Source of the DNA: a virus
Lineage: Duplodnaviria > Heunggongvirae > Uroviricota > Caudoviricetes
Strand: one strand, 5' to 3'
Length of the DNA: 64,000 bases
Virus record (IMG/VR): IMGVR_UViG_2526164662_000021
Coordinates: 32,574-96,573 of that record
The notes beneath the pieces were generated by a model. That model was given only the letters and a program-made list of their open reading frames with translations. It had not been told where the DNA came from and ran no database searches. Shown here one piece after another: positions 51,768 to 54,216 of the stretch; within the stretch, counting starts at the first letter, position 1; every line of letters starts with the position of its first letter. Made by a program: the position numbers and the translations under genes.

Positions 51768-51831
51768 ACTGGCCTGAAGCATTCGCAACGGTAGGAATTG
51801 TGATGGCGGCAGCACTGGGTTTGTATTCAAT

Positions 51832-52083
51832 TTGTCGCTGGTGGTAACGATGGGAAAATTAACTTTTGTTGTTGAATTTGAGGATGGTAAAGAGCCACCT
51901 GTTAGCGCCAATCTTGATGTTGCTGGTGGCAGGCTTGTTTCGGTTCTATTTGGTGACTACCGAGATGATTTCTTCCAACCAGAAGAAGTTGATGTAGTGC
52001 GAGAAGCATTAAATGAGCTAAGTGTTGACAACGATGATGCTCATGCGGAAATCATCCAAAAAATGGAACTGCTAACTCACTAA
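51832..52083 (+). CDS. small acidic protein, 83 aa
   Basis: ORF track. Confidence 0.4.
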   Translation: MSLVVTMGKLTFVVEFEDGKEPPVSANLDVAGGRLVSVLFGDYRDDFFQPEEVDVVREALNELSVDNDDAHAEIIQKMELLTH

Positions 52084-52174
52084 ATTATCAATTATGGTGC
52101 TATCACCTACGACAACGAGAGAAATTTTATAATGTCAAAAGTAAATGTTTTGATTTTTTCAGTAATTGTAGGTT

Positions 52175-52555
52175 TTGGTTTTTCTGCTGGAGTGCATATT
52201 TATATTACGTGGGGAAAAATCATCAACTACGTATGGAGTTGTTTTATTAAGTGAGGTAAGTATGTGGAGAGGTAATAGTCATGGCAGAAGCCAGATGATA
52301 CTTACCGAATATCATTTCGACCACAAAACCAATAAATCACGCTCAGTATATTTGCTCCGACACAATAGCCGCGTAAGGAATACCGTGCTGGAGCAAAATC
52401 TGACCGTTGAAATGGATAATTACGGTGGCTTCAAGCCAACAATTTCGCTTGATGATTTTCCTCGTGGTTTAAGCGAAAGAGAAGCAATGCTGAAATTAGC
52501 AGAATGGCTACAAAGATTAAGCATTGCTATTGAAGATAACTGGTCTGAACCTTAA
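52175..52555 (+). CDS. hypothetical protein (start uncertain), AT-rich
   Basis: ORF track. Confidence 0.4.
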   Translation: MVFLLECIFILRGEKSSTTYGVVLLSEVSMWRGNSHGRSQMILTEYHFDHKTNKSRSVYLLRHNSRVRNTVLEQNLTVEMDNYGGFKPTISLDDFPRGLSEREAMLKLAEWLQRLSIAIEDNWSEP

Positions 52556-52561
52556 ATTCAT

Positions 52562-52921
52562 ATGATGACATTCAAACATTTTCTTGACCGCCCATTATGG
52601 GCGGCAGCCGCAGGCTATAACTTTAATTATATGGATTGCATGTCTTATACCGCCAATGCATACGACCATTCGTTCAGCCTGCTGTTTAATTCTTTAAGAA
52701 TATTGCCGCAAACAGAAGTTGGAGAGCTTCATTTATGGCTATTGGGCTTTATCGCGGCTGTCGTTGGTGTTGCTGTATGGCCTTTTATTTTTTGGCTGGT
52801 GGCTGTTGTAGTGTGGTTTAAGTGCAAGGCATACCGGAAAAAGTATTTCTTAGGTGATGGAATGACTGATATTGCCAAAATAAACATTGAAAAATGGACT
52901 AAGGAATGTGAAAAGAAATGA
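52562..52921 (+). CDS. membrane protein, 119 aa
   Basis: TM segment LWLLGFIAAVVGVAVWPFIFWLVAVVVWF; stop overlaps next start (ATGA). Confidence 0.5.
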   Translation: MMTFKHFLDRPLWAAAAGYNFNYMDCMSYTANAYDHSFSLLFNSLRILPQTEVGELHLWLLGFIAAVVGVAVWPFIFWLVAVVVWFKCKAYRKKYFLGDGMTDIAKINIEKWTKECEKK

Positions 52922-53400
52922 CCAGAATCACTGAAGAACGCATATCGGAGATTATCGCCCGTATTGAAATGTATGGTCACGGTGCTGGATATACGGCAGA
53001 TAAAGTATTGGAAATAGCCCAGCAGATGCTGGCCTTGAGACAAAAAGAGCAACATGAAAGTAATACATGTAGATTGAATTTTGAGCAGTGGCTGGAACAG
53101 CAACGCGGAAAAATCGATGTGGACTGTGGTTGTGTGTCCACTGAAACATTCATGCACTGGTTGCGGGTAGCTTACGAGGCTGGCAACTATCCGGATAGTT
53201 CGGAGCAAGCGCCAGGAAATGGCGTCCCCGGCGAACGTATACGAATTAAGCCGCATGTTTACCGCGAACTGGTTAACCGTCTCCACGATACAGCTATCAA
53301 GTGTGCTGGCACCCAGCAATTACGAGAAAGAATTAGCCGTGTTTTGGGCGACGTTATTACGCCAGATCATCATAAACAAGCCGAGAAAAGTGGCCTGTAA
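52918..53400 (+). CDS. hypothetical protein, 160 aa (translationally coupled to membrane protein)
   Basis: ORF track. Confidence 0.5.
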   Translation: MTRITEERISEIIARIEMYGHGAGYTADKVLEIAQQMLALRQKEQHESNTCRLNFEQWLEQQRGKIDVDCGCVSTETFMHWLRVAYEAGNYPDSSEQAPGNGVPGERIRIKPHVYRELVNRLHDTAIKCAGTQQLRERISRVLGDVITPDHHKQAEKSGL

Positions 53401-53607
53401 AGGTGTCACCTTGAGGCGGCATTAAACATTAACCCGGGGCATACGCTTGGCATTATTGATGCACTATTGGTTCATAAGATGGCCAGGGCTTTATTGCCGC
53501 TGGTAGGGGGCAATGACAACTAGGAAAAAATCGCATTACTGGTGGCAAAGCCATAACTACTGATACAATATTTCTAGGTTAAAGATCTGGCATTAGGTAG
53601 AGATAGC

Positions 53608-54072
53608 ATGTTTCTTCATATCAATCCCGATTGGGCATCAGCTATTGCGGCATTTGGGTCAGCAATAGCTGCTTTTATTAGTTTGCGCACAAGTAAAAAG
53701 CTTGGATTATTCGATAAGGAAAAATTTTATAGTGAAGCATTGATAAACTTTGCTGATAGGGCAAATAAAATAGCAACAGGAAAAGCTGGATCAGACTGGG
53801 ATGTTAATGACGCAAGTAATATAATTCTTTCACTAAATGCCGCAAAAGAAACTATTGAAAGTGCGCCAAAACCTATTCGAGAGCAACTAAAACAATATTA
53901 CAAACATAATCTTTGCCATGAGATCATAACCGAATTAGAGGCTCACTCTCCCCCAGATTCAGTAATTGTAAGAGAACCATCAGAGTATGAAGGCAAGATC
54001 ATGGGATTGTGGGATGAGATTAAAATATTTCTGGGTTATACAGTGGTATCAGAAGCAGACCTTGAAGATTAA
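53608..54072 (+). CDS. membrane-anchored protein, 154 aa, AT-rich
   Basis: N-terminal TM WASAIAAFGSAIAAFISL. Confidence 0.5.
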   Translation: MFLHINPDWASAIAAFGSAIAAFISLRTSKKLGLFDKEKFYSEALINFADRANKIATGKAGSDWDVNDASNIILSLNAAKETIESAPKPIREQLKQYYKHNLCHEIITELEAHSPPDSVIVREPSEYEGKIMGLWDEIKIFLGYTVVSEADLED

Positions 54073-54216
54073 AGTTTGGTGTGACCACATCATTTCATCA
54101 ATGATGCCCGAAGTGGGGAGTTTGACGATTGTCCGGTGATTTAAGCTGCAAAGTGCTGGTGCTTTATGCTTGTGAAGTTTATAATTGTGTACACATAACG
54201 AGTACACGAGGTGTTT

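Follow-up and report, generated by a model that had tools for sequence, protein, structure and literature searches.

In P1, the genes hot, lxr and humD lie between pmgT and the phd-doc addiction module. A preliminary description of the 64,000-nucleotide stretch of viral DNA analysed here (the window) proposed that five ORFs, including AT-rich small genes, had taken their place and that the small membrane proteins among them are typical of abortive-infection or superinfection-exclusion cargo. This raises the questions of which DNA really replaced hot-lxr-humD, where it occurs elsewhere and what it may encode.

A rare allele of a known variable region

The window is a P1-like phage-plasmid. Its pap gene is 95% identical to that of P1, phd-doc-pdcB-lpa downstream of the variable stretch are 97% identical, and C1 operators are present across the window (15 sites compared with 0.3 expected by chance). 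One of these precedes the entire accessory gene run, and an operator scan found no other between 49478 and 56075 (Table 1). The stretch between pap/pmgT-5' and phd in this P1-type backbone corresponds to the pmgT-to-humD stretch called "highly variable region 8" of P1-like phage-plasmids in the relevant passages of PMC9603915, in which its variability is already on record. Both share the pap-phd locus, gene-content mosaicism, low GC and non-essential genes; the same passages score the presence or absence of P1 genes and contain neither the replacement cassette described below nor its gene family. In a P1 CRISPRi screen all genes from pmgT to humD were non-essential (PMC10695390). In this P1-like phage-plasmid, an accessory region known to be hypervariable has been captured in a rare allelic form; the supposedly unusual block is one infrequent variant of an already documented hotspot. 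The swap is real but fairly ordinary, as the region was already known to vary. An Rfam scan of 51000-55000 detected no RNA families.

Table 1 Features of the variable region and its flanks (window coordinates).
Feature	Position	Strand	Remarks
pap	48972-49475		
C1 repressor operator (equivalent of P1 OpmgT/Op88)	49478-49494	+	2 mismatches to operator consensus; P1 annotation
192-aa ORF, homologous to N-terminal two-thirds of P1 PmgT	49673-50251	+	PmgT aa 1-232, 47% identity, E 1e-50
Ead/Ea22-like gene	50501-51220	+	PF13935, E 7e-24
DUF551 gene	51192-51767	+	PF04448, E 6e-9
77-aa acidic protein, phrog_3876	51850-52083	+	E 8e-53, aa 7-83; pI 4.2; probable start
40-aa hydrophobic peptide, phrog_5525	52132-52254	+	uncertain as a real gene
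97-aa protein, phrog_1258	52262-52555	+	profile aligns to aa 30-126 of the 126-aa ORF; probable start
119-aa membrane protein, phrog_2638	52562-52921	+	E 5e-60
160-aa mosaic protein	52918-53400	+	C-terminal half is the P1 pmgU reading frame
Left mosaic breakpoint	53504/53505		
Replacement cassette	53505-54074	+	570 bp, 37.5% GC
154-aa gene, phrog_1779	53608-54072	+	predicted membrane-anchored helical protein
humD 3' stump	54075-54144	+	70 nt, about the last 22 codons plus stop, without start codon
phd promoter/operator region	54145-54216	+	intact; P1 Pphd annotation
phd	54217-54438	+	98.6% identity to P1 Phd
doc	54438-54818	+	100% identity to P1 Doc
Next C1 operator (Olpa)	56075-56091		

Two mosaic differences from P1

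BLAST and alignments of the window with P1, SJ46, pS51_2 and two further alleles placed the junctions. The window departs from P1 in two mutually independent mosaic differences that lie side by side, a reading of anatomy and history that is very probably correct. In the first, the 5' part of pmgT is separated from the pmgU frame by about 2.9 kb that the window has kept and P1 has lost, giving P1 its fused pmgT. This additional DNA, with the 192-aa ORF at its left edge, consists of lambdoid-type small early genes (Ead/Ea22, DUF551 and phrogs 3876, 5525, 1258 and 2638) and is also found in SJ46, RCS47 and P7-type phages. The Ead/Ea22-like and DUF551 genes are of lambdoid early/nin type with matches to Stx phages. 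From 51763 to 53504 the window is 91-94% identical to SJ46 and 813R1 and in part to RCS47/P7 (92-94% to SJ46 over the module of the four ORFs in 51850-53400). These phages bear humD, which is found further downstream of the shared module.

The plus-strand ORFs listed in the preliminary description exist and all match PHROG families without assigned function (E 8e-21 to 5e-63), while minus-strand ORFs overlapping them gave no matches and NCBIfam, Pfam and PADLOC scans of all ORFs returned no informative match. Translation of the 77-aa ORF probably starts at 51850; the ORF was listed from TTG 51832, and PGAP has a 234-bp CDS in pS51_2. Similarly, the 126-aa TTG ORF from 52175 is probably over-extended, its true start being the one at 52262, which is preceded by a GAGG Shine-Dalgarno and agrees with a 294-bp CDS of PGAP. 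The 40-aa peptide gene is annotated in SJ46 and left out by PGAP. The reported AT-richness is real, with a GC content of 0.34-0.41 over 52050-52950 and 0.36 over 53550-54000 (0.375 for the whole cassette) compared with 0.471 for the window.

The 119-aa protein has a hydrophobic stretch at aa 52-90 with a Kyte-Doolittle maximum of 2.58, and its homologs occur in SJ46, RCS47 and phages of Yersinia, Klebsiella and Proteus. An ATGA overlap at 52918-52921 joins its ORF to that of the 160-aa protein, which is 92% identical to its homolog in pS51_2 and 83% to that in SJ46. The PmgU match in this frame (89% identity) reads through a local stop: a premature TAA at 53398-53400 ends the ORF where relatives have GAA and about 41 more codons.

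The second mosaic difference, at 53504/53505, is the exchange of 2.38 kb comprising pmgV-upfMNO-hot-lxr-humD for a one-gene low-GC cassette. Three allele types diverge at this breakpoint (pmgV-type, phrog_3797-type and the 570-bp cassette type), and P1, SJ46 and two further genomes (L021 and L022) have other DNA there. The cassette stands for P1 segment 85524-87904 (2381 bp, pmgV through most of humD). Its right junction lies 2 nt past the stop codon of the 154-aa gene, and from 54075 onward the window is 93-97% identical to P1, including the phd-doc module that the preliminary description placed downstream of the block (Pfam PF02604 and PF02661). Searching the whole window with P1 proteins by tblastn, we found no PmgV, UpfM/N/O, Hot or Lxr; HumD residues 113-129 (54091-54141, 94% identity) were the sole survivor. 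P1 Hot produced a chance match only (E 0.71, outside the block), leaving no theta remnant. Within the block ORFs, Pfam detected neither theta (PF06440, E ≤0.1) nor an S24 peptidase/UmuD domain (PF00717) or full-length HumD, and NCBIfam and PADLOC were equally negative for S24/UmuD and HolE/theta. The earlier observation that UmuD and HolE-like motifs are missing was thereby confirmed, and the block differs from that of canonical P1. Since the 70-nt humD stump remains, the humD-bearing arrangement is the older one. Loss of hot, lxr and humD would be tolerated because these genes are dispensable. Lysogens of the variant are predicted to lack the functions of Hot, Lxr and HumD (UmuD'-like), which could slightly alter host SOS mutagenesis. 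There are no LexA boxes in 53400-54200, and their window-wide count is at chance level.

The proposal that five ORFs replace hot-lxr-humD is thus correct in part. The three genes are gone and 53505-54074 substitutes for them, but the four ORFs in 51850-53400 form an accessory module of their own further upstream, which elsewhere, as in SJ46 and RCS47, is found together with humD. The single true substitute is the 154-aa gene.

The cassette occurs on P1-like plasmids

Of 5426 complete E. coli genomes, 10 contain the cassette, always on P1-like plasmids and with at least 99% identity; this corresponds to about 1% of the ~1100 genomes with a P1-type flank. PLSDB contains it in 9 plasmids, again all P1-like, with a protein identity of at least 98.7%. 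Phage-plasmids of the P1 type are widespread in Enterobacteriaceae (the flanking sequence is present in about 20% of the complete E. coli genomes searched), and resistance, defence and other cargo accumulate in their variable regions. The cassette invariably adjoins phd-doc, and annotations list its gene product as hypothetical throughout. Every copy retains an intact 154-aa ORF, on plasmids of E. coli, E. albertii and E. marmotae that differ in their upstream mosaics. In pS51_2 (E. coli, NZ_CP015997.1, WP_001697568.1) and E. albertii NZ_CP034163.1, for example, the cassette sits in the same position next to phd-doc with 99.5-99.6% DNA identity over 53400-54210, whereas the PmgU-frame protein is intact and longer (219 aa) and the upstream genes vary in mosaic detail. 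A blastn search for distant matches in the 5426 E. coli genomes led back to these P1-like plasmids and uncovered no donor on a chromosome. A literature search for the protein accession offered nothing relevant. Relative to other P1 relatives, the 154-aa gene is the sole gene in the block that is truly new.

The 154-aa protein belongs to a phage family with a predicted membrane anchor

The protein matches the phrog_1779 profile over its full length (aa 1-154 against positions 1-169 of 169, E 4.7e-63). A word-indexed protein search returned the identical cluster only, and exhaustive phmmer was required to recover the family, which comprises 21 clusters at 50% identity among 1.8e9 representative proteins. 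Conserved positions are N53, W64, the P116-D117 pair and F141. Because of the full-length match and the 21 clusters with conserved residues, the ORF is a real gene; as members share 25-40% identity with invariant positions, the family is in general under purifying selection. Phrog_1779 is a small, uncharacterised family from temperate phages of enterobacteria, whose members move between lambdoid prophages and P1-like plasmids.

An N-terminal 17-residue window with a Kyte-Doolittle value of at least 1.6 is present in 38 of 40 family members, and one homolog has additional N-terminal TM helices. Lysine and arginine residues around the helix number 0-1 on its N side and 1-4 on its C side, in line with the positive-inside pattern. 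The membrane anchor noted in the preliminary description is therefore predicted across the family, with a single-pass N-out/C-in topology. Single-sequence AlphaFold gave an unusable model (pLDDT 50), while an MSA-based AF2 model reached a pLDDT of 76.5 with low confidence for residues 1-30. According to these predictions, the product would be a small inner-membrane protein with a short periplasmic N-terminus and one Ala/Gly-rich TM helix. The remainder, about 125 aa, would form a bundle of five or six helices in the cytoplasm and end in an acidic D-L-x-D tail. This tail, at the extreme C-terminus, is conserved in the subfamily.

No specific Pfam, PADLOC, PDB or fold match was obtained for the protein: a fold search against BFVD returned none at E ≤0.001 and the family profile had no matches among PDB sequences. 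With the 21 family members as queries, Pfam showed nothing consistent and PADLOC scattered single matches (best E 0.0022, at most 2 members per model). Across all six ORFs, defence HMMs from PADLOC-DB 2.0 hit 0 families at E ≤0.1. In position, the 154-aa gene fills the genomic slot of P1 hot. However, compared with Hot and E. coli HolE (DNA polymerase III theta, PF06440), its product is non-homologous, twice the size and membrane-anchored.

The cassette gene as a possible moron

Morons of lambdoid phages are additional genes that bring their own signals and lie inserted among conserved ones, a concept from comparative work on HK97 and HK022. The cassette gene may behave likewise, as a self-contained accessory gene hopping among the accessory slots of temperate enterobacterial phages. 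It is present or absent at the same site in closely related genomes, its base composition deviates from that of the surrounding genome, and its homologs in lambdoid prophages occupy the nin region or the distal early-left arm, with intergenic gaps at their flanks. In four of these contexts (L004, L023, L031 and L033) a canonical intrinsic terminator directly follows the homolog, as is seen with morons. In phage PhiR26_1 a terminator and an AT-rich spacer precede it.

In contrast, the cassette of the window has no plus-strand terminator between 54072 and phd. A sigma-70 promoter-like site at 53542-53569 on the plus strand (GTGGCA-16-TACAAT with TG, 9/12 match, extended -10) lies 39 nt upstream of the ORF, but such sites are not above chance (2 observed compared with 7.1 in shuffles). 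As the window lacks a terminator and the junction falls 2 nt past the stop codon, the 154-aa gene may share its transcripts with the C1-controlled operon upstream, with transcription running on into phd-doc. About 1.7 kb upstream of the PhiR26_1 homolog, with two genes between, there is a PD-lambda-1 defence gene. A small basic protein (phrog_16632) was considered as an obligate partner of the 154-aa family in a two-gene module and rejected, as this small protein is limited to two types of context and the window lacks it.

Possible roles of the 154-aa protein

On balance we somewhat favor the explanation that the window carries a rare region-8 allele with a moron-like membrane-protein gene that serves lysogens. 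The protein might have a non-essential lysogen-benefit function at the inner membrane, the likeliest version of which would be exclusion of, or an abortive response to, other phages. Such a role in exclusion or defence is itself only tentatively proposed. Temperate phages encode single-pass inner-membrane superinfection-exclusion proteins, e.g. HK97 gp15 and P1 Sim. Like these, the 154-aa protein is a small accessory product of prophages with a single predicted membrane helix at its N-terminus. We detected no sequence or fold similarity, and the bulk of the 154-aa protein is predicted to be cytoplasmic rather than periplasmic. PADLOC and Pfam, searched with the protein and with 21 family members, showed no homology to any protein known to act in exclusion, abortive infection or defence. 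The assignment of the block as abortive-infection or superinfection-exclusion cargo was drawn from context and was not borne out by these scans or by the non-specific fold search.

The co-orientation of the lambdoid copies with early lytic operons fits an early lytic function equally well. It is possible, if on the whole unlikely, that the protein is an early lytic accessory factor (host takeover, anti-defence or replication) instead of a lysogen-expressed exclusion protein. Its gene would then be part of the C1-controlled pmgT transcription unit in P1-like elements and of the pL/pR early operons in lambdoid phages, and the protein may have a functional tie to the phage theta (Hot) protein that is often its neighbour. 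The gene has the orientation of early operons in every context, the run from the pmgT operator to Olpa is free of further C1 operators, and 6 of 10 independent prophage contexts have a theta gene or what is left of one no more than 1 kb away, including an X'-theta-X arrangement with a 13-nt gap. Occupation of the hot slot and the resemblance of the conserved D-L-x-D tail to a short docking motif point the same way. Against this stand four contexts without theta (L023, L028, L029 and L031) and the window itself, which has no theta remnant, so that the protein needs no phage theta. The terminators downstream of homologs and upstream of the PhiR26_1 copy suggest an autonomous unit, and a membrane anchor is atypical of a replisome partner. 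A literature search on theta-linked prophage genes yielded nothing relevant.

Alternatively, the swap would have no selected function in P1: illegitimate recombination would have deleted genes that P1 can spare while a lambdoid ORF hitch-hiked along, and the rare allele would persist by drift on a successful plasmid lineage. The non-essential nature of the replaced genes, the rarity and near-clonality of the allele (about 1% of P1-flank genomes, at least 99% DNA identity), the arrival of the gene without terminator or clear promoter and the premature stop in the neighbouring 160-aa ORF, which hints at locally relaxed constraint, all agree with this. On the other hand, the 154-aa ORF stayed intact in all copies whatever their upstream mosaic, and purifying selection acts on the family; we consider a neutral swap improbable. 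A role as a two-component abortive-infection or exclusion system tied to phd-doc for the 119-aa and 160-aa proteins (52562-53400), which the preliminary description had singled out as a coupled pair, is more improbable still, to the point of being barely credible. The strongly hydrophobic membrane protein, the 4-nt overlap and the low GC are as described; ATGA overlaps, however, are routine in phage early operons. The pair is standard in many hot/lxr/humD-bearing P1-like phages where other genes separate it from phd-doc, its second member is mosaic and truncated here by the stop, and PADLOC matches neither. We rejected the pair as a conserved module, since more remote homologs of the membrane protein are followed by unrelated genes.

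Returning to the moron-like membrane-protein gene, a rather speculative extension is that phrog_1779 represents a new class of single-gene membrane-anchored accessory effector travelling as a module with phage theta (Hot) genes, either a novel exclusion or abortive-infection protein or a tether using its D-L-x-D tail for a replisome or SOS component. If the tether were true, P1-like plasmids would have exchanged hot-lxr-humD for this gene on functional grounds and not by accident. At 465 bp, the gene is a compact candidate for lysogenic-conversion and phage-exclusion assays.

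A single gene in place of hot, lxr and humD

The window is that of a P1-type phage-plasmid. Its pap, phd, doc, pdcB and lpa genes match P1 with 95-100% protein identity or ~97% DNA identity, and it carries 15 C1-operator-like sites against a chance expectation of 0.3. The small ORFs named in the preliminary description exist on the plus strand upstream of phd-doc and all of them hit PHROG families whose function is unknown, while no PHROG match was found for the minus-strand ORFs overlapping them and no Rfam family in 51000-55000. Their low GC content was borne out, with fractions of 0.34-0.41 and 0.36 in the AT-rich stretches compared with 0.47 for the window. 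Two perfect matches to the LexA-box-like CTGT-N8-ACAG pattern (51070-51085 and 33143-33158), one of which falls within Ead/Ea22, are probably meaningless since the window-wide count is at chance level.

Hot, lxr and humD are missing from the window. In agreement with the preliminary description, no ORF matches DNA polymerase III theta (Hot/HolE-like, PF06440) or S24 peptidase using Pfam, NCBIfam and PADLOC, and blastn of the P1 segment against the window gave zero matches. Inspection of the sequence at 54075-54144 shows the final ~22 codons of the UmuD-like gene humD and its stop, without a start codon. This remaining stump indicates that a humD-bearing arrangement stood here before the segment that now lies upstream of it.

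Mapping by BLAST against P1, SJ46 and the same-allele plasmid pS51_2 resolved two separate mosaic differences between the window and P1. One is a 570-bp cassette (53505-54074, 37.5% GC) that stands for 2381 bp in P1 (record 85524-87904) spanning pmgV, upfM/N/O, hot, lxr and most of humD. The only ORF within it is the 154-aa ORF, which fills the hot slot of P1 and whose stop codon sits 2 nt short of the right junction. Downstream, the cassette has left the phd promoter/operator region in place.

The other difference lies further upstream. The first 232 residues of P1 pmgT are the counterpart of window ORF 49673-50251, its tail corresponds to window 53171-53392 in another frame than the window's own 160-aa ORF, and P1 'pmgU' shares its frame with that ORF. 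The annotated pmgT (1989-2918 in our P1 record) looks like a deletion fusion, and 'pmgU' is what P1 has left of the 160-aa gene in frame. Because P1 pmgT/pmgU match the window on either side, the ~2.9 kb between 49673-50251 and the pmgU-frame part are extra relative to P1. This stretch contains Ead/Ea22, DUF551 and four of the five ORFs originally singled out. At 92-94%, it is common to SJ46 and 813R1, partly present in RCS47 and infant-gut 'P1' isolates and to a small part in P7. humD or an equivalent is annotated here in SJ46, RCS47, P7 and the gut isolates, with lxr too in the latter two. As phages sharing the stretch carry humD or its equivalent, the four upstream ORFs are not substitutes for hot-lxr-humD; the replacement first ascribed to five ORFs applies to the 154-aa ORF alone.

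Features of the locus and contexts of the phrog_1779 family. Positions without a record are those of the window; L001 is P1, and the other L numbers are further records (plasmid alleles, prophage contexts of the family).
Feature	Record	Position	Strand	Description
77-aa ORF		51850-52083	+	phrog_3876
40-aa hydrophobic ORF		52132-52254	+	phrog_5525
97-aa ORF		52262-52555	+	phrog_1258
119-aa membrane ORF		52562-52921	+	phrog_2638
160-aa ORF		52918-53400	+	phrog_21459, 924, 60
154-aa ORF		53608-54072	+	phrog_1779, E 5e-63, full length
phd		54217-54438
doc		54438-54818
Three-way mosaic breakpoint		53504/53505; L001 3024; L021 1605; L022 1604
nin-region contexts	L008-11, L024, L025-27, L028, L029
Early-left-arm contexts	L004-7, L018-20, L023, L031 (probably), L033
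Theta association	L025-27	L025 4150-5483		intact theta 13 nt upstream; second family paralog on theta's other side
Theta association	L008-11	L008 5796-6480		frameshifted theta
Theta association	L024	4755-5480		divergent, uncalled theta-like ORF
Theta association	L004-7 and L018-20	L004 5907-6522		23-codon theta remnant
Theta association	L033	3028-4495		intact theta two genes away

A recurrent breakpoint and a rare allele

The left junction of the cassette is a recurrent module boundary. The pmgV-type (P1/SJ46), phrog_3797-type (L021, L022) and cassette-type alleles diverge at the same nucleotide after shared pmgU-frame sequence. E. coli pUTAK-13-1 (L021 1629-2254) displays another short allele with two tandem phrog_3797 genes; as the second of these runs into the final ~24 residues of HumD (tail match to phrog_811), this too is a humD-destroying replacement. 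In a genome-wide CRISPRi screen, the P1 genes pmgT through doc were all scored non-essential for lytic growth (PMC10695390). Overall, these data show the locus to be a rare allelic form of an already known hypervariable, non-essential region; this form was produced when one foreign gene took the place of pmgV through humD at a recurrent breakpoint.

The cassette is rare, yet already in databases. It is found in 9 of the 1131 PLSDB plasmids sharing the flank and in 10/5426 complete E. coli genomes (flank present in 1104), always on P1-like plasmids of ~93-100 kb with at least 99% DNA identity and never on the chromosome. It also occurs on plasmids of E. albertii and E. marmotae. Immediately downstream there is always phd-doc, while genes further upstream differ; PGAP names the gene 'hypothetical protein'. 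INPHARED phage records lack the cassette at the DNA level and contain homologs of the 154-aa protein only in two lambdoid coliphages (~35% identity). Given that variability of the region has been published and that public plasmids carry the allele, the locus-level finding is ordinary. Some same-cassette plasmids (L012/L013 13360-14571) carry an IS605-family OrfB/TnpB (Cas12f-like) gene, absent from the window, downstream of pdcB, near lpa and before pacA. In L013 an lpa call lies just upstream of this inserted gene; in L012 there is none.

The 154-aa protein belongs to a conserved, predicted membrane-anchored family

A word-indexed protein search retrieved only the protein's own cluster, while exhaustive phmmer against 1.8 billion representatives yielded 21 clusters at E <=1e-3, mostly ~150-175 aa, and a profile search ~20 further sequences from Cronobacter, Klebsiella, Enterobacter and Citrobacter. 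A22, S25, N53, W64, N71, A79, L102, P116-D117 and F141 are invariant or nearly so in family alignments, and the window's subfamily conserves an acidic motif, [ST]-[DE]-x-D-L-x-D, at the extreme C-terminus. The gene product is a small, conserved protein from a temperate-phage family that is uncharacterised.

The membrane anchor predicted earlier is supported across the family: 38/40 members have an N-terminal, 17-residue Ala/Gly/Ser-rich window with Kyte-Doolittle >=1.6. With 0-1 basic residues before and 1-4 after it, a single-pass N-out/C-in anchor is predicted; one homolog has extra N-terminal TM helices. AlphaFold with the family alignment (pLDDT 76.5, pTM 0.68) gave a core bundle of five or six helices, with block-mean pLDDT 86-93 over residues 41-110, and low confidence for the anchor. 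Fold comparison is uninformative, with nothing at E <=0.001 in BFVD; the family profile found nothing among PDB sequences, and defence and Pfam models gave no convincing match to family members.

Genomic setting of the phrog_1779 family

Wherever a chromosomal context was examined, the gene occupies a lambdoid prophage accessory slot in the orientation of the early operons, either in the nin region, between O/P-type replication genes and NinE/NinG/RusA/Q, or in the distal early-left arm, between recombination genes and int. Intergenic gaps usually lie on both sides, and canonical intrinsic terminators follow within ~20-90 nt in L004, L023, L031 and L033. These habits are moron-like. In Escherichia phage PhiR26_1 (L028 740-4408) the family member lies in the ren-nin hotspot behind a strong terminator and an AT-rich spacer; an annotated PD-lambda-1 defence gene (740-2242, opposite strand) is ~1.7 kb upstream with two genes between. 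In another nin region (L029 6122-7156) a DUF968 (PdcB-like) gene lies a few genes from the family member, which underlines the kinship of the P1 pmgT-to-pdcB stretch with lambdoid nin regions.

In the window the 154-aa gene is preceded by a chance-level promoter match alone (53542-53569). As no terminator was found after it, no LexA box in 53400-54200 and no C1 operator between 49478 and 56075, the sequence gives no cue to the timing of its expression.

Possible roles and association with theta genes

The cassette gene is uncharacterised accessory cargo in a phage-plasmid hotspot. We infer that the product would be an inner-membrane-anchored, moron-type factor, and tentatively place first a benefit to the lysogen at the membrane through exclusion or abortive infection. 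A possible reading that we rank second, at about the same probability, an early lytic accessory perhaps tied to theta or the replisome, touches on the genes next to the family: in 6/10 independent prophage contexts, a theta gene or what is left of one is found no more than 1 kb upstream of the phrog_1779 gene. None was found near it in four contexts (L023, L028, L029, L031), nor any remnant in the window. This linkage is the single feature that hints beyond a generic moron, and it may mean no more than that both genes reside in one mobile accessory module. A neutral hitch-hiker, ranked third, appears improbable.

Placed last, and very improbable, is the two-gene Abi/Sie system proposed for the 119-aa and 160-aa ORFs. 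The described translational coupling comes down to an ATGA overlap in the window (19 nt in relatives), and nothing points to a two-gene system: the downstream partner is cut short, and distant homologs of the 119-aa protein, from phages of Yersinia, Klebsiella and Proteus, are followed by unrelated genes. In relatives the partner is a longer mosaic (219 aa in pS51_2, 310 aa in SJ46). A TAA at 53398-53400, GAA in P1, SJ46 and pS51_2, ends the window's PmgU-frame protein ~41 residues early; it may be either a genuine pseudogenising mutation or an error in the sequencing.

Beyond the locus itself, interest centres on what phrog_1779 does and on how it is linked to theta genes of phages. A very basic small protein (phrog_16632), absent from the window, precedes the theta remnant and family member in L004 (5665-5898) and L008 (5611-5793). 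The two proteins, 77 and 60 aa, are 48% identical and lie at different prophage positions, one in the early-left arm and the other in the nin region; this suggests that phrog_16632, theta remnant and family member moved as a three-part unit.
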